Shown here one piece after another: positions 4,426-60,640 of a stretch of 64,000 bases of DNA. Each line of letters begins with the position of its first letter. The stretch's first letter is position 1. Position numbers and translations under genes: made by a program. Location: positions 42,709,020 through 42,773,019 of the forward strand of contig JAHRHZ010000283.1 in the NCBI GenBank assembly GCA_024137785.1. The letters run 5' to 3'. Below the pieces are notes generated by a model, which was not told the origin of the DNA, did not search any database, and was given only the letters and a program-made list of their open reading frames with translations. The stretch comes from Ginglymostoma cirratum (lineage: Eukaryota).

Positions 4426-4655
4426 CAAAAACAGAAGTTGCCGGAAAAGCTGGGCAGGCCTAGCAATATCCGTAAAGAAAAGAAATCAGAGTTAACGTTT
4501 TGCGTCCGATGACTCTTCCGGTTCGGAGGAAGGGCCACTGGACCCGAAATGTTAACTCTGATTTCTTCACAGATGCTGCCAGACCTTCTGAGCTTTTCTA
4601 GCAACTTCTCTTTTTGTTCCTGATTTTACAGCATCCACAGTTCTTTTGGTTTTTA
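4426..4655 (+). mobile_element. Short hairpin-shaped Penelope-derived element with decayed hammerhead core
   Basis: Inverted arms (about 4431-4519 and 4534-4608) match the terminus of the 15663-18965 PLE; core reads CGGAGGA-AGGGCC-ACTG-GACCC-GAAATGTT. Confidence 0.75.
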
Positions 4656-5054
4656 TTCAGCAGTAGTAATACCTGTCTGAGTTCATCCGTGACAATGGCA
4701 AGACAAGAATATATTTTTTTCCTAAGGTTTAACACATCTTGTTCCCTTTCTGCTCCCACTGCTTAACCTTACCATCCTTGATGATAGCAGATATTTGTGG
4801 AGTTTGAATTTGTGCCAAATAATACAAATGACTATAAGTAATAACTATAGTTATTTGGTAGTACAGAACTTGAGCATTGCTGAAAAAACACAAATTTTGT
4901 TGAAGCTTTCATTTGCACTCAGCAGGACAGTTCACAAAAATACCAAAGTAGAAGGGAAAACAACAAGTATATTGAATGAGAAAATAGTGCTGATCATTTG
5001 GCAAGTGGACTGTGATTGATAGGGGCATTGCCTTGAAAATGCGATGTTTTCTCA

Positions 5055-5600
5055 CACCTCCTCAGGGCCCTTGAAGTACCATCAATACAGTTTGAGATAA
5101 ACTCTCCGCATCAGTTTGGAGGGCAGGCATACCATCATATTCCTTGAAAGAGCAAACAGAACCAGTGTAGTGGCCCTGGTCATCCAAAATCAACTTCGCT
5201 GGGCCAGCCATGTACTCTGGGTGTTTGACTTCTGACTGCCAAAGCAAATCATCTTTGCCCAGCCCAAGGAAGACATTTGAATGAAAGAAGGACAAGGAAA
5301 ATGTTCCAAAAGACATCCTGAAGGCCTATCTCAAGAAATGCAACATGAATGTCAGTGCATGAGAGGCACTCATTCAGAAGAAACTGACTTGGAGGAACCT
5401 CCTGTATGATGACAGGCAACTCTTTGAGAACACCAGTTGGCGAGACCAAGTACAAAAAATAAACCAGAGAAAGGAGTGCCAGCAATCTCAAGGCCAAGGG
5501 CCAATTCCATCTCCTGGAAACATCTGACAAGTGTGGTTGGAGATGTGGCTCTAGGATCAGGCTCGTCAACCACGCAAGGACTCTCTAAAACCGTGACCAT
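5055..5600 (+). mobile_element. RTE-clade LINE 3' fragment
   Basis: Decayed translation NQLRWASHV...LPKQIIFAQ...GQGKCSKDILKAYLKKCN resembles the RTE post-RT region. Confidence 0.65.
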
Positions 5601-6001
5601 GAATTTCCAAGGTGAACAATTGTACTTCATTACTGTGTGCCACCTGTAGACCATGGAGAATGCACCAGTTAATGATGACAATTGTTAACTGCCACATTTA
5701 TGTAAATTTTAAACTGGGCGGTTGACTAGTCAAGGCATTGCCCTAAGACATGAACCAGAGAATGGCTATCACCTATTTTATTGAGTTGAAGCAGGTACAA
5801 TATGTCTATATATTCTTTTTCAGCAACTTGTGTTTAAGTACCTTGATTCTAGAGCCCACTTCAAATGCTAAACAATTGTTCTGTACCATAGGTTATTTTT
5901 CAAGTAGGAACAAGTTGATTCTCAAATGTTTTCTTGGAAAGTGTTCAGTTTTTGCAAAACTAACAACTACATTTTTGAATGTTTAAACTCTCCTCCTATA
6001 G

Positions 6002-6086
6002 ATGGGTGCCTGCTTTACAAAGGTATTTGATGGATGTCCTTTGAAGATAAGTTGTGCAACATCTTGGATACACCCTGAAACAAAGG
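6002..6086 (+). CDS. MAP4K5: MAP4K5 coding exon ([31 protein letters not shown] start)
   Basis: cctatag| and |gtaatg; phase 0 to 1. Confidence 0.96.
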
Positions 6087-6197
6087 GTAATGCTATTAAG
6101 CAAAAATTGCTTTCACACTGAAGCTATTTACAAAAAAAGTTACGCAGTATTTCTTCCAATGAAATATTAACTTTGGCATTGTTTTTCTTTAAATTAG

Positions 6198-6277
6198 ACC
6201 AATATTTAATATTTGGAACTGAAGATGGCATTTATACATTAAATCTGAATGAGCTGCATGAAGCTTCAATGGAACAA
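6198..6277 (+). CDS. MAP4K5: MAP4K5 coding exon (DQYLIFGTEDGIYTLNLNELHEASMEQ)
   Basis: aattag| and |gtaagc; phase 1 to 0. Confidence 0.96.
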
Positions 6278-6462
6278 GTAAGCATAATGAACATAGATTT
6301 TATCTGGTCTTTCTTGCAATTGCAGCATTGTCAGAACTGTAACACTGAACTTTAGGATTCTGTTTTGACAAGTGGAGTAATGGCTATGCAAATCTATTGG
6401 AATAACTTTGATTTAACTTCTCAATGTTTTTAATGGATGTTAATTGAAATGTATTTTCCCAG

Positions 6463-6523
6463 CTTTTTCCCAGGCGATGTACCTGGCTGTACGTTATCAA
6501 TAATATTTTAATGTCTTTATCAG
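6463..6523 (+). CDS. MAP4K5: MAP4K5 coding exon (LFPRRCTWLYVINNILMSLS)
   Basis: ttcccag| and |gtatgt; phase 0 to 1. Confidence 0.96.
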
Positions 6524-7304
6524 GTATGTATCCATTTGGTCAAGTCTTAAGAATAATACTTGAACTTTGCTTTTGAAAATTTATTTCACTTTATTGCCGG
6601 TCAATAGGTGTAACAAGCGATATTGTAGATACACTTTAATTTATTTTCATGGGAACGCGGCAAATTGAAAATCAATTTTAATTGTTGTGATGAATTTTGA
6701 GTTTTAATCTTCCTATGTTATTATTGCAATACAATAGAATATAAAAATGATGATTAAAGCTGATGTTGCTCTGACAATAGAAGTGAAAAATAGCAGAAGA
6801 GATAATTATGCAAAAGAGAAAATTAAGACACAGCCGTATGCAGTAACTTATGAAGTAGAAATGTAAATAAAGTATGACAGTACTGAACAGTGTGTAAACA
6901 TGACTCTAAAATAAGGGTGAACTAGGGATTCAAGAAACCAAGGAGAGGGGTAACCTAGTGAAAGGAAACAGACTCTAAGAGTTTGTATAGGTACCCAATA
7001 GTCAGAGATAATACAAGTCGTATCAAAAAAATTTAGCAGCACAAAGCATCTGCTGGTTGCTTTAAAACAAGTGACATTTGCAAAATTCCTAGTTAAGATT
7101 TAGAACACACAAATCTTTGGGTGCCACTGGGGAGGTCTGACTCGCTTTGGTATTCTGGCCTCGATCCTGTACTTTTTTGTACTCTAATTTCAGTCCTGTT
7201 GTTTTGGTGGATGACTGTAAAGTAGCTCCTTATTGACTGTTTGCAGTTCTCGAGTGCCAGAAGGAATTTTATATTTTGAAATAACCTAAATTACTCAGTA
7301 GTGT

Positions 7305-7600
7305 GGATAAGTGATGGCCTACTAGTATTATCACGAGATTATTAATTCATAAACTAGATAATGTTCTGGAGACGTAGTTGTGAATCTCAACATGTTGGAA
7401 TTTGAATTCAATTTTAAAAATCTGGAATTAAGAGTACAACGATAAACATGAAACTATTATTGATTGTCAGAAAAACCCATCTGGTTCACGAATGTCCTTT
7501 TATGAAAAGCAACTACTGTCCTCACTATATATATATATATATATATACTTAAAAACTCACTGCAACATTGACTCTTAACTGCCATCTGGGTAATTGGGGA
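7305..7600 (+). mobile_element. tRNA-derived SINE, same family as 63123-63447
   Basis: Shares blocks GGAATTTGAAT...GAATTAAGA...GATTGTCAG.AAAACCCATCTGGTTCAC.AATGTCCTTT with the 63 kb copy. Confidence 0.65.
7526..7547. repeat. (TA)11 microsatellite
   Basis: Read directly. Confidence 0.95.
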
Positions 7601-8725
7601 TACTGAACTGATCTCTGGCAGAAGAGTAGTGAGGGCTAATACCATTGATATCTCAACCAGCACTTACACTCTTTACTGCTGCTCTGAACTGGATATAAAG
7701 ATTTGCTCCCTTGTGTAACTGGGGGGAAAATAATTGAACACCTGACGCTGATAGCTATCCATTGATGCCATTTGAAAAGTATGCATGTTTAAACTTGTAC
7801 AGAAACAAAATGCATCAAGAATGGTCATTCGGTTGAGATGTTGAAAATCTCTTTCTCCCTTGAAACCATACTTCCAAGATGAATTACATTGTTTAAACAC
7901 CAGAAAAAGGGATCGCTTTGAAAATAAATTACTGAATTTTGCAACATATACTGGACTCTTAATGTAAATCATTCACTGTTAAAATTTTACTTTCTGGCAC
8001 GAGTCACTGGACAGAAGTCAGAACTGTTTCTTCTACCTTTTTTTTCAAAAGCAAACCACTGCTCCTCTTAAACCCAATAATTCTGAAGTTTGTGTATTCT
8101 GTCTACTGCTTCATGTGGCGATGTTAATTGATTTTGTACATTGCAGGGATCAAATCTAGACCATCTTAATTAGTTACCATCATGAGGATTTTAAAATTGG
8201 GAATACTGACCAGCTTGCCCTTGCGGACTGCCTAAGTATCAGTCATAGAATAAGAGAGTCATGAATCAGTACTTTATTGATGTAGAACAGTGGGAAAATG
8301 TAGTTTAAATTAATTAAAATGATAAATTTATGGCATGGTTCCAATGAATATTAAACAGTTTTTTTCAGGTGCACCATATAAATATGCTTTAATGTATACA
8401 CAATGCTATTCTAAACTCAGATATCCTTTTTTGAGGTTTGTCTATTGTCGATGTTTGTATGTATTAAATAGTATAGGACGATGAAAATTTGAACTTGATA
8501 ATTTTCGAAAATAGTTTATATTGTCTTTACAATCTTATAAAATGTGCTTTGTCATTTGCACTGAAATTAGGTTTTAACTAAAATAATCGTTGAACTGTTC
8601 TTTCCTTTTGTTGTTCATAATAGACACTTGTTTAAACTCCTGAAAAATTAATCAACCCTCTTGTGTTCTCCTTTTCCCATAATGGCTTCATCTTGTGTCT
8701 AAATTGACCCGCTTACTGCGCGCAG

Positions 8726-8728
8726 AAG
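8726..8728 (+). CDS. MAP4K5: Candidate 3-nt MAP4K5 microexon (AAG; SLS-GKT becomes SLS-E-GKT)
   Basis: actgcgcgcag|AAG|gtaaac; about 100 nt AG-free pyrimidine-rich upstream zone; TGC at -9; frame-preserving in a phase-1 intron. Confidence 0.75.
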
Positions 8729-8794
8729 GTAAACACATTGTATAAACCAAAGCTGAAGATATTTAAATTATGTTTTTATCAGGATTTTTGTCAC

Positions 8795-9305
8795 TTTTAT
8801 GGATGACTTTAATCTTCATATGGATTAGGGTAGTCGGATTGGCAGAGGAAGCCATGAGGAAGAATTTGGAGTGTATTTGGAACTGTTTCCAGGAACAGTT
8901 ATGTTGTGGACCCAACCTGGGATTTGGCTATTTCAGGTCTGGTGATGTGTGTTGAGGCAGGTTAAATAAATTGTCAGAATAAACAATCTCGTAGGAAACT
9001 GACCAGAACACGGTGAAATGTAACATTTAGTTTGAGAGGGAGGAACTTGGGTTGGAAACAACTTGATGAAATTTAAATAAGGATAATAACAAAAGAGTGA
9101 GGGCAGAGATGGCTGGAGTGGACTGGGGAAGGAGTTTAGTAGCAAAGATAGTTGAGCAACAATAGCAGGCTTTTAAGAAAATAATTAATGGCTCAGAGCA
9201 AAGATAACTTCGTGAAGAAGGAGGATTCCAGGAGTGGTTAACCACCGAAGTTGAGGAGAAAATCAAATTGAAAGAAGAAAAACATACAATGTGGCAAAGA
9301 TGAGG
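8795..9305 (+). mobile_element. Decayed CR1 LINE fragment (endonuclease/tether region)
   Basis: ATGGATGACTTTAATCTTCATATGGATT resembles the GDFN.H.DW APE motif, followed by typical CR1 blocks. Confidence 0.55.
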
Positions 9306-10271: not shown

Positions 10272-10281
10272 NNNNNNNNNN
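10272..10281. other. Assembly gap (10 N)
   Basis: Run of N beside a C-rich tract. Confidence 0.99.
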
Positions 10282-12317: not shown

Positions 12318-13429
12318 GTCAGTATTTGTTTTAAATTATCCATTATGTATCTAATATTTACTATTTTAGTACTGAACTATTTCTTTGGAGAGAAACAGAG
12401 ACCCAGATATCAGAGCAGCAATATTTCTTCAATTGTTTCTACTCTTGCATTCTCCTGCTCAGAGTCATTGTGCATTTCTTGCCAGGTCTTCAGAGCATGG
12501 CTTCTACAGAAATGCAGAGCATATTGTCTCTTGAAGAACTCGGTCACAGCGAGTTAGCATGAGTGAAAGACTATATGCTGCCTGTTTTACTGCACTAGTT
12601 GCATTATGGCAAGTGTTAAGGTCTGGAGTAAGTATTCGTGAGTAAATAAATGAATTAATGTGTGAATGGGCTGATGGTCAAGGTACACGGATAGGGTAGT
12701 TGGAGAGACGACAGAAGTGTGTCGGTAGTTTACTTAGCATGGGGATCAGTGTGAGCGATTTGAGGGGGCCAGTTCTATAGTTACTGGGAATTTAGACCAG
12801 GTTTTAATTTGTCTTAACATTTTCTTGGTCATCACTCAGGTTAATACCTTGGAACTTTCAGGACGAGTTGGAGATTTTTGCAGAGGACCCTAAGGAACAA
12901 ATTGCTTGCTAGAAAATCGGACTTTCCAGGCAATTCCTACAGATGTCAGTGGGACTTCTGCAGAGTCTTAAAATACATCTGTGTGTACACATCTGGTCTC
13001 TAACGATCTAGAGATTGGAACAACTGTGCCAGAGTAACGTCTCAGGTCAATAAAGGTCATTGACCTGAAATATTAACCACCTTCACCACATGCTGCCTGA
13101 GCTGAATTTTCAATACCTTTTTAATTTTTTTTCTTGTTTCTAGCATCCACGATATTCATCTTAGAGTACATACCCACAATTAAATGTTTTTTGTAAATAT
13201 CAAGTTGTAAATCTTGGGTGTTGGTGTGTTATAATGTTCACCTACCTGTTTAATTTGAAACCTTACCCTTCTTTATTTGTCATAGAATTTTCAGCCAGAG
13301 ATACTTAAGTGGGTGATCCATCTTAACCTTCTCCTGAGATCTTCATCTCTAAATGCTAATCTTTAGCCAATTTGGTTCATTCCCATGTGATATCAAAAAT
13401 GTACTGCGTGTATTGGCTATGGCTTTGGA

Positions 13430-15662: not shown

Positions 15663-18600
15663 CAAAAACAAAGTTGCTGGAAAAGCTCAGCAGGTCTAGC
15701 AGCGTTTGAAGAAGAAATCAGAGTTAATGTTTCAGGTTTGGTGGCCCTTCCTCAGAACTGATGGTAGCTGGGAAAAACATCAGTTTATATGCAGAAAATA
15801 GGGAGGGGGAATGGAGTAGGGGGTAAAACAATAGCATCAAGGATAGAGCCCAAAGAGAGAGAAGAGCAGTTGGATAAACAAAGCAGTTGATGACCATCTG
15901 TCTAGGAGGGTGAATAGCTCTTAATGAGGACTGTTGGTGAATAACAATAGGTGGTGTGTAATGGCATGCTAAACGATAACAAGGCCTGGAGTGTCGGGTA
16001 GCGGGCTAGGACGTGGGAGAGTTCAGCCCCTAAAATTATTGAACTCGATATTGAGTCGAAAGGGCTGCAGGGTCCCCAAGCAGAAAATGAGGTGTTGTTC
16101 TTCCAGCTTGCATTGAGCTTTGCTGCAGCAAGCCAAAGATACAGATATTGGTCAGGGAACAGGGTGGTGTGTTAAAGTGGCAGGCAACTGGAAGCTCGGT
16201 CTTCTTTGCAAGCAGAACGTAGATGTGCTACGAAACGATCAGCCAGTCTACGCTTCGTTTTCCCAATGTAGAGGAAACCATATTGTGAGCAGCGAATGCA
16301 GTAGATTAGATTCTCTGAAGTGCGGGCAAAGTGTTCCTTCAAATGTTTGTGGCCTTGGATACTGGGGTGGGAGGAGGTAAATGGGCAGGTGTTACACCTT
16401 CGGTTGTGGGAAAGATGTCATGGGACTGTGGGAGGGGGTTGTTGGTAGGGAAGGAAGAATGGACCAGCATGTCCTGGAGAAAATGGTCCCTGCAGTCGCT
16501 GGACCAGGGAGGGAAATATGTGTATGGTGGTGGCAGAAATGGCATCTGATCTTCTGAATGTGGATGTCGGTGGGATGGCAAGTAAGGACAAAGAGAACCC
16601 TATTGCTGTTGTGGGAGGGAAGAGAGGGGCTGAGGACAGAAGTGCGGGAGATGGGTCGGACATGGTTGAGGGCCTTGACGACAATGGTACTGGGGAATTC
16701 TTGGTTGCGGAAGAAGGTGGAAGTTTCAGAGGCTCCCTTGTTGAAGTTGGCCTCATCTGAACATATGCAACAGAGACAGAGGAACTGACAGAATAGGATG
16801 GAGTCTTTACAGGAGGTAGGGCATGAGGATGTATGTCCAGGTAGCTGTGGGATTTGGAGGATTTTTTGAGGAAATTAGTGGCCAGTCTGTCCCCAGAAAT
16901 GGAAACAGATGTCAAGGAAAGGAGGAGCCAGAGATAGACCAGGTGAAACTGAGGGCAGAGTGGAAATTGAAAGTGAAATTAATTAACTTTTCCAATTCCA
17001 GATGAAAGAGGGAAGCAGCATCGATGATGTCTTCTATATATTGCTGAAAGAGTTCTGGGTGGGGGCTAGAATAGGACTGGAACAAGGAAAGTTCCATGTA
17101 CCCCACGAAGAGACAGGCATAAATGGGGCCCATGTGGGTACCCATGGCCATCCGTCTCACCTGGAGAAAATGAGAGGAGTTAAAAGAGAAGTTGTTGAGG
17201 GTGAGGACGAGCTCAGCCAAGTGGAGGAGGGTGCTAGTGGGTGGAGATGGTTCAGGTCTTTGCTCCAGGAAGAAGCGGAGCCCTAAGACCCTTCTGGTAG
17301 GGAATGGACATGTAAAAGATTATATGTCCGTGGTAAAGTGGAGGCAGCGGAGCCTGCAAACTGGAAATTTTGAAACTGGCATAAAGCGTCAGAGGAATCA
17401 CATGGGCAGGGATTGAGTCAAAGTTGGAAAAGATTAGTTCTGCGGGGCAGGAGCAGGCTGAAACAATGGGTCTGTCCAGACAGTCCTCTTTGTGGATGTT
17501 TTAGAGGAAGTCGAAGGGGCTGGGGGACTATCAACTTGGAATCAGTGGGGGGAATTACCAGATGAAATGAGGTCCTTTACCATAGTAGATACAATGGCTT
17601 GATGTACAATGGTGGGGTCATGGTCTGGGGAGAATAAGAGGAGGTATCTGAGAGCTGGCGCTGAGCCTCTGCAATGTAGAGGTCAGTATGCCAGACTATA
17701 ACAGCACTGCCCTTATTGGCAGGCTTAATAACAAAGTCGGGGTTAGATCTAAGCACATCTAAAAGTACAGTCAGTTCAGAAGGAGATAGTTGGATTGGGT
17801 GAGGGGGGCCAGAGAAATTGAGGTGACCAATATCATTTTGACAGTTCTCAATGAACAGATAGAGTGCAGGTAAAAGGCCAGAGGGAAGGATCCAGGTCGA
17901 GGGAGAGTGTTGGAATAGGGCATTCCTCCTCTCGTCTGGAATTGGAAAAGTTCATTGACTTCACTTCCAATTTCCACCCTGCCCTCACTTTCACCTGGTC
18001 TATCTCTGACTCCTCCCTTCCCTTCCTCAACATCTGTTTCTATTTCTGGGGATAGACTGTCCACTAATCTCCACTATAAACCCACTGTCTCCCACAGCTA
18101 CTGGACTATACATCCTCACACCCTGCTTCCTGTAAAGACTCCATCCCATTCTGTCAGTTCCTCCGTCTGTGTCGCATATGTTCAGATGAGGCCAAATTCG
18201 ACAAGGGAGCCTCCGAAATATCCACCTTCTTCCGCAACCGAGAATTCCCCAGTACCATTGTCATCAAGGCCCTCAACCACGTCCAACCCATCTGTTGCAC
18301 TTCCGTCCTCAGCCCCTCTCTTCCCTCCTGCAACAGCAATAGTGTTCCCCTTGTCCTTACTTGCCATCTACGTTCTGCTCGCAAAAAAGCCTCTGAGCTT
18401 CCAGTTGCCTGCCACTTTAACACGCCACCCTGTTCCCTGGCCAACATCTCTGTCTCTGGCTTGCTACAATAAAGCTCCACGCAAGCTGGAAGAACAACAC
18501 CTCATTTTCTGCTTGGGGACCTTGCAGACTTCCGGACTCAATATTGAGTTCAATAATTCTAAGGCCTGAACTCTCCCGTGTCCTTGTCCCCTACCCCATA

Positions 18601-18965
18601 CACCAGGCCTTATCACATAGCCTGCCATTACATATTACCCATTGTTAGTCTCTAACAGTCCTCATTAAGAGCTATTCACCCTCCTAGCCAGATCGTTATC
18701 AACTCCTTTGTCTAACCAACTGCTCTTCTCTCTCTTTGAGCTCTGTCCTTGATGCTATTGTTCTCTCCCTACCCCATCCCCCCCCTATTTTCTGTATATA
18801 AACCGATGTTTTCCCAGCGACTATCAGTTCTGAGGAAGGGTCATTAGACCTGAAACGTTAATTTTGATTTTTTTCTTCACAGATGTCGTCAGATCTGAGC
18901 TTTTGCAGCAACCTCTGTTTTTGTTTTTGTTCCTGATTTACAACATCTGCAGTTCTTTTGGTTTT
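15663..18965 (-). mobile_element. Penelope-like retroelement (RT plus GIY-YIG, frameshifted) with large inverted arm
   Basis: Minus strand: MAMGTHMGPIYACLFVG...QYIEDI (RT, ORF 16912-17220) and IYCIRCSQYGFLYIGKTKRRLADRFVAH (GIY-YIG, about 16220-16306). About 17925-18965 is a + strand copy of the same 3' region with an internal deletion. Confidence 0.88.
18826..18863 (+). ncRNA. Minimal type I hammerhead ribozyme motif (intact core)
   Basis: AGTT-CTGAGGA-AGGGTC-ATTA-GACCT-GAAACGTT-AATT: CUGANGA and GAAA boxes, stem II, palindromic ACGT helix III and a 4-bp stem I. Confidence 0.7.
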
Positions 18966-24452: not shown

Positions 24453-24465
24453 CTTCACAGTATTT

Positions 24466-37550: not shown

Positions 37551-37683
37551 GTTTCAGTTGTCAAAGTCACATTACATTTCTAACCGTTCCTAGTTCCGAT
37601 GAAAGTCTACAGTCTAGAAACATGAAGTGACTGTCTCTTTTCAAATATTGAGATTGCTTGATGGCAGAGATTTCATAATTTTA

Positions 37684-39009: not shown

Positions 39010-39913
39010 GATTTTTGAAAATCCAATTTTAACATCTGATTCCTTGTTCATAAAAGCAAAATATTGTACATGCTGGAAATCTGAAACAAGCACAAAGAAT
39101 GCAGCAGAAACGCAGCAGGTCTGGCAGCACTAGCAGTGTGTTGATTTCTCCTCGTTTACCAACCTTTTGTAGTTCCAACCTCAAAACGAACAAGTACCCA
39201 TTTTCGTTTTCATAAATCTGTGTTGTCTCTGTCCAATTCTATTGTGATTGAGTTACCAAATCTCTAATAATAGACATAAGAACTGGAAGTGGGGAAAACT
39301 CAACAGGCTAGGCACCAGCTGTTGCGTGCAACAATGTTAGTATCTGAACTAATAGATCAGTTAGCTAGAGGCCAAGCCTGTCGTTCAAAATATCTCCAAT
39401 TTTGGGATAAATTGGGGATTCGCCGTTTTAAACTCTGCCTTGAAAGCAGAGGCTAACGACCGCTGAAGCTGTCTGATCTGCCGAGCATGTTCCGTATTTT
39501 CTGCTTTTTAATGACGCGAGGCTATTCGGCCCATTACGCCTATGTCCAAACTCTGGAGAAACCTCTCGGTCGCTCCCAATCCTCTGCCCTGCCCACGCCC
39601 CGTCGCCCTCGGGCTGATTTTGCCATTTGCGAGCTCTTTGTTCTGATACGTATCTCTGAATATTCATCAGGGGAAAAAAAAAGTCACACAGACACAAATG
39701 AATAAAATGCGAGTGGGGGGGGGGGGAAATGGCTGAGCACCTTATTGTAAGGTTCTTCTGAAGGTGGGAAGGCTCCGCCCCCCCCAGTGGAGACGGTGAG
39801 TTTGTTGTTCACACGCTGCAGCCGCTTATTGTGTGCGAGAGACTTCCCCGAGTAAAGTGGCGGCGATACACTGGGGGAGGACGGGGTTCCCTTTGCGATT
39901 TCCCGCTGACTGA

Positions 39914-40276
<363 letters not shown>

Positions 40277-43200
40277 TAGCACCACATTGGGCTCGGGGCG
40301 TTTGTGTGTTTTTTATTCCTGTGTTGAGGTAATGACAACGTGCCATTATTTAGCGTTGGACACTTTTTTATTGAGTCCACGAATTGCCCGCACAGTCTGA
40401 GTAGATTGATCTTATACAGACCTGAAGAAGTCATATTGGACTAGAAGCAGTAACTTTGTACTCAAATGCTACCGGGACTTGATGAGTTTCTCTGTACTCA
40501 TTTCAGATTTCCAGCATCCGCGGGATTGTGATTTTTTTTTTAATTTTGCGGGTTTATTGTACAAGTGAGAAATCAATCTCGCTTCCTCATCACCTGAATG
40601 AAGTATTTAGCTCGCGTTTCGTGGACAATCGACAGCTGGGACCCATCGCCTTGTCCGAGGGACGGGGAAACTGCAGCTTTGTTGTTTTCCGGTTGAGGTT
40701 CGTGCCGATGCCGCTCGAGGGAACGCTGCAAGCTGCTAAAGGCGCCAGAATCACCGAGTTACCCTTGTGCAGGAGGAAGCCATTCGGCCCACCCTGTCTG
40801 CACTGTTATCTACTGCCAATCCCCTGCCTTTTCCCTGTATCCCCGCGCACCATTTCCAATCAAATAAACAGGAAAAGCCTGTCGTCTCTGAGATTAAATC
40901 ATATTGCTGCTGGTTTCACGCAGTGATTGACAAAGCACCACGAATGGATTGTGGCCATTCCCCTCTCAACAAAGTTCATTTCTTCGTAGCTACCACTGTG
41001 AGCATTTTGTGGATTATACCGGTCCCACCGTCTCATGTATCATTTCTCTGCTTTTCTTCAGTAATCAGGCTGTTGCAAGGCACTGCTTTGCTGTAACACA
41101 TAATGATGGTATGTGTCTAAACGAAGTGAGTGTGACCACATACTTGCCCTTGTATCTCTTTGTGTCAATTCTAATCCTTTGACCTGCCTTTCACAGCAAA
41201 TTCCTCATGTTGCTGGTTTGACGATGTCCTCCACTGCTTTAGCCATCATGTCCAGTCACTGTTGTGTTGTTGGAAATGTCATAAATCAATTTGTGCACAC
41301 CAAATTCTTCAGATTATACAGAAATGAGAGAAAGTATTAGGATTTTGTTTTAAGATGGGGAGCAAGTATTGGCCAGAAGTCCGGTCCTGCTCTTATTCGG
41401 ATAATTCCCTCGAAAAGAGGGTAAGTGAAACATGTGCAGCAGCCTGCGTTATGAGCTCAAGTCCAAGGGATTTGAACCCAAGAACTCAAGCCAAGGCTGA
41501 CACCTATTTCTGGTGTCCAGGTAATTGGCTAGTCACATACCTAATGAATAGGTTTGATAGTTCCAGAACTAAATAGAGCAGCAGGGATTTGTGGCAAAAA
41601 AAGCTAACATACAACTCAGTACTTTTAAAGTGAAAATTGATTCATTTCAAGCATACCACTTTATGAAATCTTTCGTGTTATCTGGGTACACAGCCCTATA
41701 CTTGGAAGCTTGGGACTTGCCATCCTTTCAGCATTCTACCATCATACTGAAGGAGATGAATCTCCTCTCGTTGCTTAGAAAACTGAAAATGGGGGTTATA
41801 GCTGCTGGGAAAACCAAACCAGGTAGGCCAAGTATGCGACCATGCTCGTGCCATCCAGAGATTGTTGTATTGAACCCATGATGCCGAGAAACTGCACTGC
41901 CAAATGGTAGAACCCCCAAGTAGTGGGGTTTGAAATAAAAAGTGCTGGAGAAACCCAGCTGGTCTGGCTGCCTCTGTGGGGAGTGAGAGAGAAAGAAACA
42001 GTTAATTTTTAGATATGAAGCTTACATTCAGAATCATGGTAATGTTTTCTTACGTGGTGACAATAATGAGGAGAGGTTCACTGTACTTCAGGGCATGTTT
42101 GACAATGAGTAATCATTGGAGCAGGAATTCTTTTTAATTTGGCTCTAGTCATGCAAGCCAATATTATTCCTTATGTGTGAGAGGCTTTGGCTTAGCAAGA
42201 AGTAGAAAATTTAGAAGTGTTCTGTGCTGTCAGACAGTTCTGGTTAACATCGTGTCGCTCTGTGCAAATATAGATTCCTAGGATTTGGCTCAATCAACTC
42301 TGCAAAACGTACTGTACATGGGTAAATGGATTTATCCTTCCAAGGAAAGTGTTTACTCTGTAACAGGCAAATTGAAACACTCCCTATGTGACTTTGTTTG
42401 CATGCATAAAGGTTGTTTCATGGTTTGGCAATAATAGTTAACTCAACAGCACCCAATGCTTCATTGTCTGGAATAACATTTTAGAAAAAAAAACTGTAAT
42501 GACTTGAATCTGATTTTTTTAAAAAAGCATTTGGTTTGAGAATTTCAAGTTGAAGATGTACAGTATAACCCCCCCACCTTTAATAGTTTAAGGTAATTAC
42601 TGTATATTATCATTTATTAAGGCCAGAAATGTTGAATTATAATAGCCGATGAATGCTATTATGCAGTAAGGCAATATTTCACATTTAAATAAATTTAGCA
42701 GATGTCAGCAACAATACATTTTACAGAGACAACTTTTTGACCAGTTTTTTGCTTTTTATGACTAGCACACACTGACAGCTACAGTGCTGTTGTGCCAGAT
42801 ATATCAAAGAAAGTTTGGTTTCGTTAGACATTTTCACTTCTACAGGAACAATTCAGATGGTCGGCTATGACAATTGTGTATTTTCTAAAGTTACCAGAGG
42901 AGTATGTGTGCATCTTGCACAATACAATCATGTTCATGAAAATTTAAAAACTGGATATTATTGAAGGGATGATTCTCAGATTTAAGTAATTGGTTCAGAA
43001 ACCAAACTGAGCACAGTTTCGATTTGAGAGCAGATTAAAAGTGGGAAGGGAGAACCTAAATCGTTTCTTTAAAATTTGGAGAGGCATTGATTATGTGATT
43101 TTGCTGAAGTGTTTTTTTTTGTTTTGTCATATATGCCACGGACTTTTAACATAAACTGCTAGAAAAAATAGCTGATGTTCTGTCAACTTATTCATTCACA

Positions 43201-43719: not shown

Positions 43720-43912
43720 TCCAATGCTTGAGATCTGAAATAAAACAGAAAATGCTGGAGAAATTCAGCTGTTCTGGCAGCATCTGTGGTGAGAGAAACA
43801 GTGAACATATCAAGCTTGTCCAAAAGAAGGGTTGAAATGTTAACGCTGCTTCTCTATCCACAGATGCTGCCAGACCTGTCAAGTCTGTCCGAAACTTTTG
43901 TGTTTTTATTAT
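43720..43912. mobile_element. Short hairpin-shaped Penelope-derived element (decayed)
   Basis: AAAACAGAAAATGCTGGAGAAATTCAGC...GGCAGCATCTGTGG pairs with CCACAGATGCTGCCAGACCTG; centre CCAAAAGAAGGGTTGAAATGTTAAC is a decayed hammerhead. Confidence 0.6.
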
Positions 43913-46482: not shown

Positions 46483-48921
46483 TCTATCAGAGCAATCGTT
46501 GTTTATATCGATAAAAGTTGAAACTCTGAGATTATTCCTGAAACAAAGAGAAATTGCTGGAGAAACTCTCTGGCGGTATCCGTGGAGAGAGGAACAGAGT
46601 TAAGTGACCTTTCTTTAGGTCACATCCAACATTCTTGCTCAACTCTTCCCTTTTTGACCCTTTACCTTATTTTTTTATTTATTATTTTCCCTGACAAATC
46701 CACTTTAACCTCTCCTGGATTGTTTAAAATTATTGTTTTTATTACTCTTCTTTGAAGATTTTTCAGTTATGTATGTCTTTTCATAAATGGACACCACAGT
46801 TGGACACAGTATTCTGTGTGTCTTTGCCAATGCTTTCTAGAGTGTCAGTCTTGTGTCTCCAGACCAATAAATTATGGATTTACTTGCATACTGAACATTC
46901 TCTTGGCATTGGTTATTGTTACTCTATAACGTGATACCATCAACATTTTTCCCACTGACCCATTTTAACAATATAAATGGTTTTGGCTGTATTATTGATA
47001 AGAATATCCTTGCATTTCTGAATAATTCATGCTATATTCCCCATTGTCAAATGTCTGCAAAAGCTTTTAAATAACATTGTTTCTCAAAAATGTCCCCCTT
47101 TTTGATGCACTATTGGATTGTTTGTGATAAATTTTTCTAAATTAAAAGTCATTTTAAAAGTGATTAGGTAAATCAGAAACCCTTGTACTTTTAGAAGGAT
47201 TTTAAAAGGAACACAGCACATGTATCATTTTTCCAGGGGTGAAAAATTGATCAGGAAAGTTTACTTGTATTAGCTAAGATAGTTTTGGTGCAATATGTTT
47301 CTTGTTTGTACTGCATTACTTGTTATAATGTTCATGTTCATATTCATATTCATATAGATGTTGACCAGGAAAAGACTGTAGATTTCCAAGTGGTGTGTGT
47401 TTGTCAGTAACTGCCAATTGTATTAAATATTGTATTCTGTGGGTATTGTGATGTAAACATTAATTTTGTTGTTCATGAAATGAAATATGAATTTTTTGAA
47501 TGTTAAACTATACATTTCGCAGTTTCGTTACCTGAACACGAACACAAGACCAGAACTAATTTTAAAAGCAACATATTGGAACCTAGCAATAATCTGTTTT
47601 CCTTACTGCTGCTGTTGCTAAGAATGGGTTGGCATTTGCAGTAAATACGACAACTTGTAACGAATCAGTTATTTATGGTGTGTTTGAGATGTATGAAAAA
47701 TTTGTGGGAGTGTCAAACTAACCCTGTTGCTGAACGCAAACTATATAGTGCCAAAGCATGACGTTTTGCTTTAGATATTTGTAGATTGTGCGGCATTACT
47801 ATATTCAGAAAGTAGGCAAACAACAAAGTTACAAGCTAATATAAACATGTGATAATTTGTTCAAACATGAAATGCTCTGCTATAAGTTATGCATTTTGAA
47901 ACATGCAACAAATTAAGTCTTACTGATAGTTGCTTTCTATATACAAAGCGTTTGAAACCACTAATTTAAATTTTTAAATAACTGAGGCAGGGGGCATTTC
48001 TCATCTGTAACAATGTTCTGATCTTCGTATTTGCATCTGTACAAAGCTGATAAATGAAGAACTCAGTTGTGACTGGGATAAAAATAAAAATCATCCAAGT
48101 TTTGTTCTTTATGTACCTCACTGACATCATGGTTGGGGGTGTGCGGGGTAGAATTTGTCAACAGTGTGCCATTCCGAGTGATGTAACCAAAAGTGTGTGC
48201 CAACTCCAATTCTCATGTTCATGTTTCCTTTGGATTACGATTAAAATTTTAGAGTTTGTGTGACATGTGTAGGAAACATACATTTATGCAGGAAATTTTT
48301 TTTTTCCCATTGTTGAAACCCGCCATCAGCTGACAATGTTGCAGCTACTGGTGGGCATCTTCCAAACCCACCACCACTTCCATCCAGAACGACAAAGGCA
48401 GTAGATAGTTGGGAACACCACTGCCAGCAAGTTCCCTTCCAACCCACTCACCATCCTGACTTGGAAAAATATCGCCATTCCTTCACTGTCGCTGGATCAG
48501 AACTCCCACTCTAATGGCATTATGGGTCTACCTGCAGCATGTAAACTGCAGTGGTTCAAGGGCAACTAGGGATAGACTGTAGCTGCAGGCTCAGTTGGTA
48601 ACATCCACAAAAACAAAAAAAAATGTCTCATCCTCAAACAGTAAGGCTCTGCCTCATAGCCACAACTTTCCTGCCCAAATACTTGGCCATTAATGTAAGA
48701 CTTGAGAGCACAGAGGTGCCATAAGAGATATTTCAAAATTTAAATTTCATTTGTAGATATTTCACATTAATTAAATATGAATAAAGTGCATCGTCACTAT
48801 TTGTTGAAACTAGCTGAAAGAGCTAAGTTTACTGGAACACCTCTTTATTCGTATGTATTGATGGTTACAGGAGAGAAAGGGTAACTTCCTTTATTGTGGA
48901 AGAAACAATGTTTTATTCTTA

Positions 48922-49132
48922 CAGAGATAATAGGAACTGCCGATGCTGGAGAATCTGAGATAACACGGTGTAGAGCTGGATGAACACAGCAGGCCAAGCA
49001 GCATCAGAAGAGCAGGAAAGCTGACGTTTCCTCATTTTCTGAAAAAGGGTCTAGACCCGAAATGTCGGCTTTCCTGCTCCTCTAATGCTGCTTGGCCTGC
49101 TGTGTTCATCCAGCTCTACACCTTGTTATCTC
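48922..49132. mobile_element. Hairpin Penelope-derived element (third family) with TSD
   Basis: 74-bp arms 48957-49030 and 49059-49132; centre CTGAAAA-AGGGTCTAGACCC-GAAATGTC; CAATGTTTTATT repeated at 48906-48917 and 49133-49144. Confidence 0.8.
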
Positions 49133-50340: not shown

Positions 50341-52546
50341 CAGTACAGTATGGAGCTGGAGGAGCACAGCAGGTCAGGCAGCATCAGAAGAGCAGGATAG
50401 TCGACGTTTTGAACCTAAACCCAATCCGGATTACAAAATTACTTGTGGTCGGTTTTAAACGGAATCTACAATTATGGTTCATCATTTAGAACGATCAGAA
50501 TTAAATGTAGACTTTTGCTTCAGTTATGCTTAGATTGAGGTCTTTTTCTGCCATAATTACACAAATATTTGTTTCAAACTTGAATTCAAGTTCTTACGAC
50601 TTGCACTAAATAGCTTTAACATAAAAAGAGCTGTACTACATCAAATGAGCACACTATATCTCAACATAGAAAATGTGCATTATTGTGATGTTAAGTTTGC
50701 ATTCTGTTTGAGGGATTAATTTATAAGCTTATCCTAAATCGAAAACCATTAATAATTGAATGGTATAACTTTTCTATAAAAATATTAATTACCTGTTTCA
50801 CAGTTAGACCTTTTTTTTAGGAAAGACAAACCTATGTTTCCAAAATTTTATACTGGTATTCAAAAGTAATAACTCAAAGCTTTATTGAACCCATCTTGGC
50901 TCCAGAGTTGAAACATGTTAGTTGTTCAGTTATGGAATGTGAAATGGGGTCAAGTAAAGACTCATTATGGCAAATTAAATTGTTGCCATTTTCCAGCTGG
51001 CACATATCATAAGCACTACCCCCATTAGGATAGAACTAGTGGTCTTTCTTGGTCATGATTATTTTTAAAACATGCATAACTCTGGCAAATCATAACACAC
51101 TGTAACCTCTCTGGTCTGGAAAAAAATATTCAGAAACACACGTTGGCCGGAAATCTTCTCAACAGGACTCGAGCAGCTCAGAATCATTTTAGTGCAGGAC
51201 TATTAGGAAACATGAAAGGTATATCCTTGGATAAATGAAAAAAATTACAACTGATTTATAACGCTTTATCCTTTGTTTTATTTTCATGGTAAATATTTAT
51301 ATTTTATGGTGTTTTCTGGTTCATACACTAAGGGTTAGGCATCCAAACATCATTCTTAAAAATGAGAAAATTCCAATATCCAAAAATGACTTGGTTTCCA
51401 GCATTCTGGGTTGGAGAGATAGCAGTATATTTAATACCAGTGGTAAGTAAATGAAATTGAGAAAAAAAAAATCATGCTTTTATTTTTGGTAGGGAAAGCT
51501 AATGTTCTTACATAGACTACTGTGCTCTTTGCTGTTCATTATCAATTTTAATCAAACATTTGTTTTAATCATTACTGCTTTGCTTGCCGCAGTGTTTTTC
51601 ATTGTAATGTGATACCTTTTACGCATTGCGAAACAGCACCATTTTTCTCCTTCTGAAAGGACCTATGTGGTTCCAAAAGTTTGGAAAAATGATCAGTCAT
51701 CCAATAGTTCACTGAATAAGTGGTATCACATGTGATAGAGAACAACTTATCCAGATCAAATAACTAGTATTTAGTTTGTTCAGAATCAGTTCATACTCGG
51801 ATCTTACATTTATGTCTTTCAGCAAGTAGAAAACCAGGAAATCCCATTTAAAAAAAATGGTATTTGCAATGGGACATGAGAAGGGAAATAATTGGATTCT
51901 TTGTGCAGGAGAAGTTATTGTTTACTATCAAAAGTTAAGCATTTGAGGTTAAAACGTCAACCGTGTAAATGCTTCAAATTACTGTTTCATTTCATTGTTT
52001 TGATCTAATAAAAGGGACATTAACATATCTGGTCCCTTCCTTTTATTATGTAAATGTCATATTGCACCAAGGAATTGTACAAGAGTAGGGAAACATTAAA
52101 TTAGAACAAATTTAAAGGCTTTGAAGCTGAAAACATGAAGCATTTGGAATAAAATTAATTACTTAGTAGTACAACTAGAGACGAAAGGATGTGATTTGGC
52201 GGTGATTACTGAGACATAGTTGCAGGGAGACCAGGTTTCAAAATTGAATATCCAAGGATACTCTGTTTTGGAAGGATAGGCAAGAAGGAAAAGGAGGTGT
52301 TGTAGCTTTGGTAAAGGAAGAGATTAGTGCTGTAGTGAGAAATGATTTAGGCACTGGAGATCAAGACATAATTTCTAATTAAACTGATTAAGAAACAGCA
52401 AGGGAACGAATTCCCTAGTGGAAGGAACCTACAAGTCCCCAAACAGTGGCAGTAGGATACAGTAATAAGATCACATGGGTTACATGTAATTTATTAGCTT
52501 AGATAGAGGTTTAGGTTACCAACAAAAAGCAGACAGTTGGGATGAA

Positions 52547-52842
52547 AAGAGGAGCAGGAAAGCTGACGTTTCGGGTCGGGACCCTTCTTCAGAAATGGGG
52601 GAGGGGGAAGGGAGCTCTGAAATAAATAGAGAGGAGGGGTGGGGCTGGGGAAAGTAGGTGGAATGGTGATAAATGAGTGCAGGTGGGCAGTGGTGAGGAT
52701 TGGTTAGTGAGGTCTGAGGAGCGGATAGGTGGGGGAGAAGATGGACAGGTCAAGGAGGTGGGGATGACCGGAAGGGTTGGTCATGGGATGAGGCCAGAGG
52801 TGGGGAGACTCCAGCATCGGCAGTTCTTGCTGTCTCTAAGTG
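52547..52842 (-). mobile_element. Penelope-derived insert with 12-bp TSD
   Basis: AGTTGGGATGAA at 52535-52546 and 52843-52854; both ends match the 48922-49132 family. Confidence 0.75.
52562..52595 (-). ncRNA. Minimal hammerhead ribozyme motif (intact core, weak stem I)
   Basis: Minus strand CTGAAGA-AGGGT-CCCG-ACCC-GAAACGTC with a GUC cleavage triplet. Confidence 0.6.
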
Positions 52843-54153: not shown

Positions 54154-54534
<381 letters not shown>

Positions 54535-54657
54535 TAAGTAACATTGAGTGTAGCCTGCACAATACACATGATTTGCATAGAAAAGGAAGGTAGCATTCTA
54601 AGCTTGATTACTCTGATTTTGTGATCTATGGCACTGATTTATTCTTGGCAATGAAAA

Positions 54658-55876: not shown

Positions 55877-56032
<156 letters not shown>

Positions 56033-56820
56033 TAGTGCACCAATGTACTATTTTTACAATGCTGATTAATTTTGAGAATGTTTAAAGCTTTAGTTAGATT
56101 TATGTACTACAATTAAACAGATGTTGCATGTCTAATCCTCATTTAGACTAAAGCCTGGTTTAAAACAAAATCACCCCTCAATATACTGAATTCTTAAATT
56201 ACTTTTGATATTTTACATTCAATTGGTCATTTATCGTCAGCGTTACTATGGGGTGGAACGTGTTGGAATGCTTGAAGCAGCTGCCTGCCATAAAGATGGT
56301 GCTGTCCATATAATCATACAGCTGCAAAAAACATTTACTTTCAATTGATTGGTAGTCCATTAAATTGGAAACTCTCAATCCATTTACTGTACACGCTATA
56401 AAGTGGAATAAGGGAAAGTGAAGAAAACAGTTATCATTAACTATATTTGTCCCCATTAATACATTTGTGCTCAGTAACAAAGCAGCCCATTATGGGCACG
56501 CTCATGGTCTCAATTTTGAGAATCTCCCCATTTGTCATGCAGACGGTGAAGTTTTTAACTGAGGAATATTTGTATTTTTCCTGAGGTATGTGTCTTTGCT
56601 GCCTGCCTGTTCTGTACACACAGCGATATTGATGTCATCGTCTGTACTTGCACAGAGACATTCTGGCAACGTAGGTCTGACTGGTGTCAATTGGGGCATT
56701 GATGCCTGCCAATCCAGTATCCACATCTAGCGTTGTGAATAGATATTCTGTAAAATCAAACAAACTAAACAGGCCATTAATTGGTTTCAATCTTTGACTA
56801 AACAATCTAAAATATATGGA

Positions 56821-56915
56821 TAACACAGTGTGGAGCTGGAGGAACACAGCAGGCCAGGCAGCATCAGAGGAGCAGGAAAGCTGATGTTTCGGATTGGGAC
56901 CCTTCTTCAGAAAAG
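56821..56915 (-). mobile_element. Solo Penelope-derived terminus with decayed hammerhead
   Basis: Same family as 48922-49132; TATATGGA at 56813-56820 and 56916-56923. Confidence 0.7.
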
Positions 56916-56984
56916 TATATGGAATCTTTTAGAGAAATCTTTTTGTGTAATAATACCAGATATTAAATTTTACCAGCTTGCAGT

Positions 56985-57640
56985 CAAGTAGGTGATACAT
57001 TTTGGAAGGTCAAGTACAGATGGAAATTATACGGTGAATGGCAGAATCGTTAGGAGTACTGATGTGCAGAGGGATCTGGTGTTGCGGTCCACAGATCACT
57101 GAATGTAGCACAGGTAAATAAGGTAGTAAAAAAGGCCTATGGCATGCTTGCCTTCATTGGAAGGGGCATTGAGTATAAGGACAGGCAAGTTATGCTGCAG
57201 CTTTATTGAACTTTAGTTAGGCCACACTTAGGATATTGCATACATTTTTGGTCACCACACTACCAGAAGGATGTGGATGCTTTGGAGAGGGTACAGAAAA
57301 GGTTTACTAGGATGTTGCCTGGTATGGGGATTTTAGCTATGAAGAAAGATTGGATAGACTGGGTTTGTTTTCACTGGAATGCAGGAGGTTGAGGAGGGGT
57401 TTAAAAGAGATGTGCAAGTCAAGTTTTTCACTCAAACGGTGGTGAGTGTCTGGAATGCACTGCCAGAAGAGGTGGTGGAAGCAGACGCAATAGCAGCATT
57501 CAAGAAGCACCTGGACGAATACATGAATAGGAAGAGAATAGAGGAATACGGAACCTGTAAGTGAAGACAGGTAAGGAAGGGCAAAATGTGTTGACACAGG
57601 CCTGGAGGGCCGAAGGGCCTGTTCCTGAACTGTATTGTTC
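56985..57640 (+). mobile_element. CR1 LINE 3' fragment
   Basis: FFTQTVVSVWNALPEEVVEADAIAAFKKHLD and tail GGGCCGAAGGGCCTGTTCC. Confidence 0.85.
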
Positions 57641-58001
57641 GTTGTTTTTTTTTTTTTTTGCAGCTGGCTGAAATTCTAGCTCCTTTTGCATCATTTGGAT
57701 TGATTTTGAACCTTCCAGATTAATCAAATGATAAAACACAGCAAGTAGTAAAAAATAGACAGTAATATATTAAAAAAAAAATTTCTGAGAGGCTGTTGGG
57801 ATATAATTAAAAATGGGTTGAAACTGCATTGTTATTGGAATTCTCCCATTAAAAGTATTCAGTATGGTTTCTCCAGATGTCTCTTATCTTATCAAGAATT
57901 ACAGTTTGTACGATAAATAAGATCTACAAGATCTGCAATTTCTGGGCTAGCATATATTTGCTATTCGTGCAACTGTTTAGCATTTTTGAACTAATCATTA
58001 A

Positions 58002-58127
<126 letters not shown>

Positions 58128-58298
58128 TGACTATCCTATATTTTCAACAAATATCTAATGGTTAGTTTTACCACTTATATACCTATAATAAGATTTATGG
58201 CAATTGTTTAGCCATTCTTGAGTGGCATTACTAAAAGAAGATAACCTTTCAGTGACTGAGTGGATTATATGCTTAAACTGAAGATAACAATTATGTTG

Positions 58299-58512
58299 GA
58301 AAAGCTCAGCAGGTCTGGCAGCATCTCTGAAGAAAATAATCAGTTAAAGTTTGGATCCGATGACCCTTCCTCTGAACTTAATGACAGTTGAAGGTCACCG
58401 GACCCAAAATGTTAACTGATTTTCCTTTGCAGATGCTGCCAGACCTGCTGAGCTTTTCCAGCAACTTCTGTTTTTGTTCTTGATTTACAGCATCCTCAGT
58501 TCTTTCGTTTTT
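58299..58512. mobile_element. Hairpin Penelope-derived element with 15-bp TSD
   Basis: GAAAAGCTCAGCAGGTCTGGCAGCATCT pairs with AGATGCTGCCAGACCTGCTGAGCTTTTC; ATAACAATT(A/G)TGTTG at 58284-58298 and 58513-58527. Confidence 0.8.
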
Positions 58513-58649
58513 ATAACAATTGTGTTGCTATATATCACAACAATTTAGGAGTTCATTATAATACCAACTTAAACTTGCAATTAACACCAACATCATCTGA
58601 ATGAAATGAAATTCTCGACTCTGTTCTAATTTTCCTATTATTTTAAATC

Positions 58650-59058
58650 TTACAAGGAGAGACTGGATAGGCTGGGAGTTTTTCACTGAGCATAGGAGGC
58701 TGAGAGCTGACTTTATAGAGGTTTATAAAATCATTAGGGGCATAGATAAGGTGAATAACTAAGGTCTTTTCCGTAGGGTAGGGGAGTTCCATACTAGAGG
58801 TCATAGGAGAAAGATTTAAAAGGGACTTGAAAGGCAGATTTTTCAAACAGTGGGTGGTTTGCATGTAGAATGAACTGCCAGAGGATACAGGTACAGTTAC
58901 AACATTTAAAAAACGTTTGGATAAGTATATGAATAGGAAAGATTTAGAGGGATATGGGCAAAACACAGGCAAATGGCACTAATTTAGTTTGGGGAAACCT
59001 GGTCGGCATGGACAAGTTGGACTGAAGAGTCTGTTTCCATGCTGTATGACTCTATGAT
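58650..59058 (+). mobile_element. CR1 (HER1-like) LINE 3' fragment
   Basis: GACTTTATAGAGGTTTATAAAATC block and tail TCTGTTTCCATGCTGTATGACTCTATGA, resembling the HE1 SINE tail. Confidence 0.8.
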
Positions 59059-59412
59059 ATTTTAAAAACTGCTGCATCTTTGGTTCAGATTTTTAAAAAA
59101 AGAGTCTCAATATTGAGAAACACGAGATTAAAACTACTTTGAAATATAAATTTCTCAATTGGGCAGTTGCAGAGTTAATAATAGATAGTAATACTGGGCT
59201 TTTTTAAGTAGCACTCAAATGCCTTTGACCAGTTTCATTCATTGAATATATATGTATCAACCGTTATATAGCATTTCTGAAGTAGTGGTCTTTATTTTGA
59301 TGAATGCATTTAAATATAGATTGGATATGGAAGTGGAATGCACTAATCTAGGCTGGTGTTTCAGTGCAATTCTAAGCTGTCACAATACTTTTTGGAAGTG
59401 CTATCCTTTAAC

Positions 59413-59782
59413 GGGTTGGTTAGCTCTGTTGGCCAGTCTGTGATGCAGTGTGATTGCTAATCATAGAATCCCTTCACCGCATAAACAGGCCATTTGGCCC
59501 ATCGAGTCTGCAGTCGAAAGAACATTCCACACAGCCACTGCCTCCATTTCCTTAACCCTGTATGGGGTCTATAGCATGGGGCTAATCACCTAACTTGCAC
59601 ATCTTTGGATTTGGTGCCAATGGCATGGGTTTTATTCCAACACCGGCTGAGGTTACCCTGAAGGACTCTCTTTCTAGAGCTTTCCCTTAGCCCTCAGGTT
59701 TAACCACCACTAGTCGTCTCTCTCTCTAATGAGAGAGCAGCCCTTTGGTCTGGTAGGACTATGATGGCTTTACCTTTACCTT
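59413..59782 (+). mobile_element. SINE with TTTACC tail, interrupted by an antisense HE1 fragment (about 59460-59612)
   Basis: 3' part (ACCACCAC.AGT...TAATGAGAGA.CA.CCCT..GGTCTGGTAGGACTATG.TGGCTTTAC) recurs at about 54230-54308. Confidence 0.55.
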
Positions 59783-59979
59783 GTCATCCTATAAAACCTT
59801 AGATTGAGGTCTTCCAAATGTTAAGGCAAACATAAAGGGTCCAATTCTACAAGTGGATGAGTTTTAAATGGGTTAAAATCAGGCTCAAAAGATCTCCTCA
59901 AGGAGTTGAGAGTTGTTTAAATGACTTGGTTAATATTTTTTTCCTCATTTGACATCCCCTAACCATATTAACTGGTCAC

Positions 59980-60282
59980 AACCAAAAGCAGAAATTGCTG
60001 GAAAAGCTCAGCGGGTCTGGCAGCATCTATGGAGAGAAATCAGTTAATGTTTTGAATCGAGTGACCCTCCTTCAGACCATCTCTCCACTGATGCTTTGAT
60101 TTGATTTATTGTCACGTGTACCCAAGTACAGTGAAAAGCTTTCTTTGTGAGCAGTACAGGCAGATCATAGTAAGCAAGGACATACAGATCAGAGGGTGTT
60201 TTGCTGCCAGACCTGTTGAGTTTTTCCAGCAATTTCTGAATTTGTTTCTGATTTACAGCATCCACAGTTCTTTCAGTTTTTA
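59980..60282. mobile_element. Hairpin Penelope-derived element with nested LINE-tail insertion
   Basis: CAGAAATTGCTGGAAAAGCTCAGCGGGTCTGGCAGCA pairs with TGCTGCCAGACCTGTTGAGTTTTTCCAGCAATTTCTG; unrelated (TTTGA)n-led insert at about 60095-60195. Confidence 0.7.
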
Positions 60283-60464
60283 CATACTAACTGGACATTC
60301 AGTGCTTTGCTTTATTGTGCCACTTTATTGTTCAAAACATAACTGCGTTATACTAAATTAACTACAATTTAAAAGTAATCGTATTGATGCATTTTGGGAT
60401 GGCTGAGCAATGTGATAAGGTACCGAAGGATCATTGGTTTAGTTAAAGTACTGTGTCCTCCCAT

Positions 60465-60640
60465 TAAACAAAATCAGAAACTGTTGGAAAAACTCAGCAG
60501 ATCTGGCCACATCTGTGGAGAGAAAGTGGAGTTAACGTTTTGGGTCCAGTGACCCTTTTTCAGAACAAAGTTGAGTTTTTCCAGCAATTTCTGATCTTGT
60601 TTCTGATTTCCAGCATTCGTGGGGTTTTTTTGTCTTTCTA
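60465..60640. mobile_element. Hairpin Penelope-derived element just upstream of CDKL1 exon 5
   Basis: ATCAGAAACTGTTGGAAAAACTCA pairs with TGAGTTTTTCCAGCAATTTCTGAT; decayed minus-strand hammerhead at about 60529-60566. Confidence 0.7.

Follow-up and report, generated by a model that had tools for sequence, protein, structure and literature searches.

Penelope-like elements (PLEs) that contain an endonuclease (EN+) leave complex insertions, and the canonical form carries an inverted, 5′-truncated copy of the pseudo-long terminal repeat (pLTR) together with a tail of 30–40 bp (PMC8557442, PMC3846280). Single and opposite-strand minimal hammerheads, with pairs lying 100–700 bp apart, have been ascribed to truncated PLEs (PMC4209133). 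In vitro, the Anolis Poseidon element PAc uses AT-rich targets in which both strands are cut and extended, and reverse transcription initiates internally at two sites on an uncleaved RNA template (PMC11167929). The PLE insertion cycle is still called undefined (PMC8557442). Here we describe short, hammerhead-bearing hairpin elements in a 64,000-nt stretch of the Ginglymostoma cirratum genome (contig JAHRHZ010000283.1, positions 42,709,020–42,773,019; hereafter the window) and in a sample of the rest of the assembly.

The short elements are pLTR/leader pieces of two autonomous PLE families of the Neptune/Nematis type, A and B. Their arms are not randomly truncated; most end at one site, which is also the start of 5′-complete copies of the parents. 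This coincidence is the new point of the analysis, and it leads us to regard the short elements as probable aborted run-off copies of the parent PLE's own transcript.

Parent families and the inner ends of short copies

When the A and B termini are extended upstream, natural copies lead into decayed open reading frames (ORFs) with PLE reverse transcriptase (RT) motifs, a C-X4-CxxC linker and a GIY-YIG domain with CCHH. The parents thus combine a PLE RT with a GIY-YIG endonuclease (EN) at the C terminus in a single ORF, and they also show a pLTR at both ends, partial tandems, an inverted arm and a 30–40 bp tail. A C-X2-5-CxxC linker before the EN marks the Neptune/Nematis clades (PMC8557442), and it is on this motif, present in both families, that A and B are assigned to them. 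The two Pfam matches to GIY-YIG (E=0.0079 and 2.7e-4) are both under the curated cut-off; among ten degraded ORF pieces, seven gave no Pfam family, one a weak unrelated match and two GIY-YIG. A single longer homolog was recovered, an RT-bearing shark protein that is 56% identical. Long RT/EN copies carry at their 3′ end the same 130–140 nt with which complete copies open at their 5′ end, ∼30 nt ahead of the ORF start. Because 5′-complete copies consist of this terminal sequence followed by the body, and because an ATG lies ∼30 nt past the tail in 27/30 A loci and 25/30 B loci (with open frames of up to 306 aa in natural copies), the short elements correspond to a non-coding leader that is present at both ends of the unit.

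Positions within the leader are numbered from C3 of the hammerhead CUGA core, which is taken as 0. The core motif and stem II are conserved across subfamilies, between which only N7 and stem II wobbles vary, and they decay in individual copies; the core is intact in 40/50 B arms and 8/19 A arms. Judged by its sequence, the motif fits the minimal type I hammerhead class (PMC4209133). Minimum free energy folding gave no hammerhead fold beyond stem II, and stem I of family B is weak except in a young subfamily. Members of that subfamily (L045, L055, L064, L065, L081, L087, L118, L133, L138, L139, L145 and L169; <1% divergence) have an intact core, a GUC triplet and a 4-bp stem I, which suggests recent activity.

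We used a blind sample of 120 stretches of 10 kb at round coordinates of large contigs, in which 639,182 of 1,200,000 bases were readable. It contains 165 termini together with 28 hairpins, numbers that, should the readable part be representative, extrapolate roughly to a million termini and ∼190,000 hairpins genome-wide. In the counts of end positions, arms adjoining N or a locus edge (11/165) were censored. Two sets of hairpins are used below, an unbiased one of 33 from the random stretches and the window and a partly query-biased one of 88.

Among arms of the blind sample that reach position 0, the inner end falls within −8 to 0 in 27/32 A arms and 31/57 B arms. Arms that pass this stop rarely end soon afterward (0/26 in B and 1/5 in A over the next 40 nt). 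What lies upstream of the stop is a unique flank, an inverted arm or a short re-copied piece. Such re-copied 5′-terminal pieces are seen at the inner junctions of L125, L138, L145, L152, L166, L175 and L180, a pattern that template jumps at the end of an RNA would leave. As an independent test, copies picked by their post-tail body, with seed loci left out, begin at the same place: 9/20 A copies and 11/14 B copies that reach 0 start within −8 to 0, and the other 11 A copies run beyond it. In the full set of 29 such copies per family, 7 A and 11 B copies end before 0, and 2 A and 4 B copies are without leader. Many B copies (L319–L348) begin at the leader and match the body for only 200–500 nt, which could mean that priming took place further into the ORF or that these copies have diverged from the query copy.

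A TATA-like box is located 29 nt (A) or 32 nt (B) before an initiator-like A at −4, and TATA and initiator (Inr)-like motifs are described in PLE pLTRs (PMC3846280). The coincidence of ends and these promoter-like motifs suggest that the −8 to 0 site is likely the start of the parent transcript. Few arms, in contrast, end within 4 nt of the hammerhead cleavage site (4/54 in A, 4/77 in B), so cleaved RNA is not the main template. We infer that the hammerhead is a passenger in the short copies and that they were templated by uncleaved RNA.

An apparent second stop cluster at −49 in family B was rejected, as it reflects long copies of other subfamilies with common upstream sequence; these were counted as passing, and the B bins beyond −48 are not valid. 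A 3′ splice site was weighed as the cause of the stop, given the branch-point-like and AG motifs of family A at that place, and was rejected because B lacks the AG and the upstream sequences are not shared. L238 and L261 had seemed to be 5′-complete copies and are instead short elements nested inside other PLE bodies (L238:550-682, with a 15-bp target site duplication (TSD), and L261:34-169, in oriented coordinates).

The outer ends are bimodal, at ∼+96 and +131–133 in A and at +92–95 and +124 in B. The difference is the tail, and its distribution is not that of independent choice: in the 33 unbiased hairpins, 27 have one tail, six have none and none has two (P=0.002). Tailless arms ending near +55 to +62 (L013, L036, L114, L152, L159, L350) point to a possible third priming site. 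TSDs of 11–19 bp (mode 14–15, 64% AT) flank 53/82 hairpins, against 0/200 in the null; 6/88 hairpins were left out for unreadable flanks. The TSDs thus have the variable length of those of EN+ PLEs.

Elements in the window

A sequence-only reading of the window had named eight short elements, and all eight are present close to where it had placed them, with mutual cross-matches. The features are as follows.

4426–4656: family A hairpin; tailless inverted arm 4426–4519 and forward arm 4521–4656, running from position −3 to the end of the tail; mutated hammerhead core; no TSD detected
15663–18965: long head-to-head family A PLE insertion; inverted arm without a tail, beginning at 15663 (RT, linker and GIY-YIG, all decayed, on the minus strand to ∼17950), rearranged junction, tailed forward arm 18367–18965
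39070–39129: decayed A-related arm, minus strand
41933–41986: decayed A-related arm, minus strand
43720–43912: older hairpin related to A, its left arm bearing the tail; most of the hammerhead deleted
46538–46597: decayed A-related arm, minus strand
48922–49132: family B hairpin; tail on the inverted arm, forward arm from −3; 15-bp TSD with 1 mismatch
50345–50422: partial family B arm, minus strand
52547–52842: family B insertion; 260-nt inverted arm extending into the 3′ untranslated region plus a tail-only forward piece; 15-bp TSD with 1 mismatch
52565–52592: intact minimal hammerhead motif, minus strand (CUGAAGA, stem II, GAAA, ACGU, GUC triplet)
56819–56915: solo tailless family B arm, minus strand, beginning at −3; 8–12 bp TSD
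58299–58513: family A hairpin; 15-bp TSD with 1 mismatch
59980–60282: family A hairpin; forward arm split by a 125-nt piece of another repeat at 60077–60201; 12-bp TSD with 1 mismatch
60465–60640: family A hairpin; inverted arm reaching −3 and a forward arm that is short

Family A is represented by 4426, 58299, 59980, 60465 and the older 43720, and family B by 48922, 52547, 56821 and 50345. The two-armed head-to-head layout holds for six of the eight named elements (4426, 43720, 48922, 58299, 59980, 60465) and fails for 52547, whose forward piece is tail only, and for 56821, a solo arm. One arm is indeed longer than the other, by ∼36 nt in family A and ∼31 nt in family B. Five elements, rather than the four first counted, have a TSD of 12–15 bp with at most one mismatch, and a swapped-flank control for TSD calling gave 0/200. 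A hammerhead at the inner end of both arms proved to be an overstatement: in the 33 random and window hairpins it is found in both arms of six, one arm of 14 and neither arm of 13. The only arm in the window with a fully intact motif is that at 52565–52592, and an Rfam search at the gathering threshold gave no matches. The variation noted in the stem II loops reflects the existence of two parent families together with CpG decay: the ACTG and ATTA loops derive from ACCG, and TA and CC represent family B subfamilies. Seven fainter sites had also been suggested. Those near 39050, 41930, 46520 and 50345 match at E≤1e-3, those near 13030 and 40420 resemble decayed arms by eye, and that near 37590 is doubtful.

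The RT/EN-coding copy at 15663–18965, absent from the earlier list, has the same arm layout as the hairpins, a tailless inverted arm and a tailed forward arm; its GIY-YIG match lies at 16175–16417 (E=2.7e-4, below the Pfam curated cut-off). A second long head-to-head PLE-like insertion occupies 1–1319, with inverted arms at 425–687 and 1057–1319 (263 nt, 86%), an RT-like match at 3–320 and a GIY-YIG-like stretch within 688–1056 that looks Poseidon-type by eye. The 125-nt piece at 60077–60201 has two relatives among the random loci. The family A leader (for example at 58430–58495) contains two acceptor-like motifs, each a pyrimidine tract plus CAG, between the hammerhead and the tail end; a leader intron is possible. 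No splice joint with GT-AG recurs among the listed matches to sequencing-run contigs. One candidate tail-to-start joint, with intervening sequence between its two sides, is seen in contigs from three sequencing runs.

Origin of the short copies

In the mechanism we favor, the PLE protein would nick both target strands ∼14–15 nt apart, and reverse transcription would be primed inside the RNA at two sites 31–36 nt apart, the difference being the tail. When the sites used are those near the RNA 5′ end, each cDNA would run off after no more than 100–140 nt, just beyond the hammerhead. Two such cDNAs joined head-to-head would give a hairpin with one tail, and a single cDNA joined to the flank would give a solo arm. 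Having neither the TATA-like box that lies upstream nor the body that lies downstream, the short copies are probably dead on arrival.

At two diagnostic sites, a hairpin's arms carry matching variants in 20/24 and 15/16 cases, which fits one template per insertion, although later conversion between arms is also possible. Post-tail body patches occur at the junctions of two short elements, L058 and L172, where the matches score 29–30 against a cut-off of 13 that 2/600 null cases reach.

Several points weigh against the run-off reading. The start site is placed from DNA copies, and a cap-derived G signature before the A at −4 was not seen. The in vitro support comes by analogy from a Poseidon element and not from families A and B. 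Patches of the post-tail body are uncommon (two elements in a set of 262 arms), two-tailed hairpins do occur (2/88), and three junction keys recur among the 88 partly query-biased hairpins. An exact pattern matches 851 double-hammerhead loci in which both arms reach the 5′ edge, and among the first 50 listed, 16 share the center CWG. Finally, the 560,818 unreadable bases of the 1,200,000 sampled may have biased the sample.

A related possibility, which we consider less likely than not, is that PLE RNA is terminally redundant like the retroviral R region and that what was trapped in the form of short copies is strong-stop cDNA. RT would run off at the transcript start and then normally transfer to the 3′ leader copy, regenerating the promoter-bearing pLTR of the partial tandems. 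The A copies that extend beyond the start site (11/20) and the tail-to-start dimers would then be products of such jumps.

It is unlikely that the short copies serve as their own templates, in the manner of a short interspersed element. In that scenario a solo leader would be transcribed from an initiator of its own and primed at its tail by PLE protein in trans, yielding new solos and hairpins whose junction is remade each time. The same 5′ end would be expected, an internal promoter is reported for Drosophila Penelope (PMC2377424), and short arms far outnumber long ones, most strongly in family A. However, terminal subfamily variants common in short arms are also present in long copies, including the young B subfamily, in which seven short and seven long arms differ by 0.7–0.9% over 86 nt. 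The post-tail patches also argue against it, as does the in vitro need for ∼55–60 nt of RNA past the initiation sites (PMC11167929), sequence that the short copies lack.

Head-to-head units might instead arise by antisense self-priming, as has been proposed for PLEs (PMC3846280), or by random 5′ truncation with inversion, the pile-up of ends being an RT stall or structural effect near the hammerhead. Many arms do end at scattered points, but the stop is positioned 5′ of the entire hammerhead and not at the stem's 3′ base, no B copy that runs past it ends in the next 40 nt, and complete copies start at the same site. Most hairpin junctions, moreover, are not perfect palindromes. We judge this explanation quite improbable. 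Of the two options offered by the sequence-only reading, short, inverted, retro-derived PLE insertions that are not miniature inverted-repeat transposable elements (MITEs) are supported, with the correction that the arms are not randomly truncated.

Its other option, a non-autonomous retrozyme-like system, was not supported. All 33 unbiased hairpins have distinct junctions, the comparison that reading had proposed, and short-arm variants are shared with long copies. An exact tail-to-hammerhead pattern, searched for family A only, gave 13 matches genome-wide, with unlike joints and dimers at most; no head-to-tail arrays were found in it. Unique junctions had been proposed as sufficient to refute self-propagation; they were found, but they are an incomplete criterion, since templating by a short RNA would likewise create a fresh junction every time. 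Nor do the elements resemble MITEs with fixed short TSDs and equal terminal inverted repeats: their TSDs vary from 11 to 19 bp, the arms differ by the tail, and the termini match RT/EN elements. The recurrent CWG center fits convergence better than a master copy. Its orientation relative to the tail or longer arm is CTG in 9/16 and CAG in 7/16, in various parent subfamilies, and if both cDNAs end in CTG, their annealing would leave a mismatch in the middle, giving a CWG center in both orientations. A hairpin master copied as a unit, retrozyme-like or MITE-like, would account for that center and for TSDs flanking entire hairpins, but it is largely refuted and very improbable given the distinct junctions, the two CWG orientations, the variable TSD length, the few tail-to-hammerhead matches and the private variants common to both arms (L351, L354, L356 and L366, by eye). 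The two orientations, their spread over subfamilies and the private variants are what would arise if two like cDNA ends annealed.

Relation to known systems and implications

An inverted pLTR with a tail and dispersed single or opposite-strand minimal hammerheads are already known. Like the complex insertions of EN+ PLEs, those described here have a head-to-head inverted arm, a tail at one end, variable TSDs, TATA/Inr-like pLTR motifs and solo pLTRs; unlike them, the entire insertion is leader only, the copy number is very high and a single site gathers the inner ends. The hammerheads share CUGANGA, an unpaired base before stem II, a G-C closing pair and a palindromic ACGU with the metazoan PLE minimal hammerheads of PMC4209133, a paper with no mention of 'shark'; pairs here lie 0–20 nt apart rather than 100–700 bp, and stem I of B is weak outside the young subfamily. 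As in PAc, where it was shown in vitro, two internal RT start sites would define the tail (PMC11167929), whereas A and B have a Neptune/Nematis linker and an ORF that starts ∼30 nt after the tail, not inside the hammerhead. Non-LTR retrozymes are likewise non-coding, pLTR-derived and equipped with a type I hammerhead, but they are head-to-tail tandems, and the elements here are head-to-head or solo (bioRxiv 10.64898/2026.07.22.740005). Neither clustering of short-copy 5′ ends at one site nor its coincidence with the start of complete copies was met in the literature searched, mostly judged from listings, which does not establish absence from print.

Two processes outside PLEs offer an analogy. 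In L1 twin priming, two cDNAs primed on one RNA yield an inversion, and retroviral strong-stop DNA is a short run-off cDNA made near the RNA 5′ end. The resemblance is one of analogy only; the priming sites here would be fixed internal PLE sites.

The family is thus ordinary PLE debris, which repeat annotators could mislabel as MITEs. Its mass of short copies would preserve an in vivo record of both priming sites, of how far apart the nicks lie and of where the parent RNA has its 5′ end. That record favors twin priming on uncleaved RNA of sense polarity, rather than self-priming on an antisense template, and makes a sharp prediction for 5′-end mapping, and the young subfamily, with its intact hammerhead, provides a substrate for testing it.

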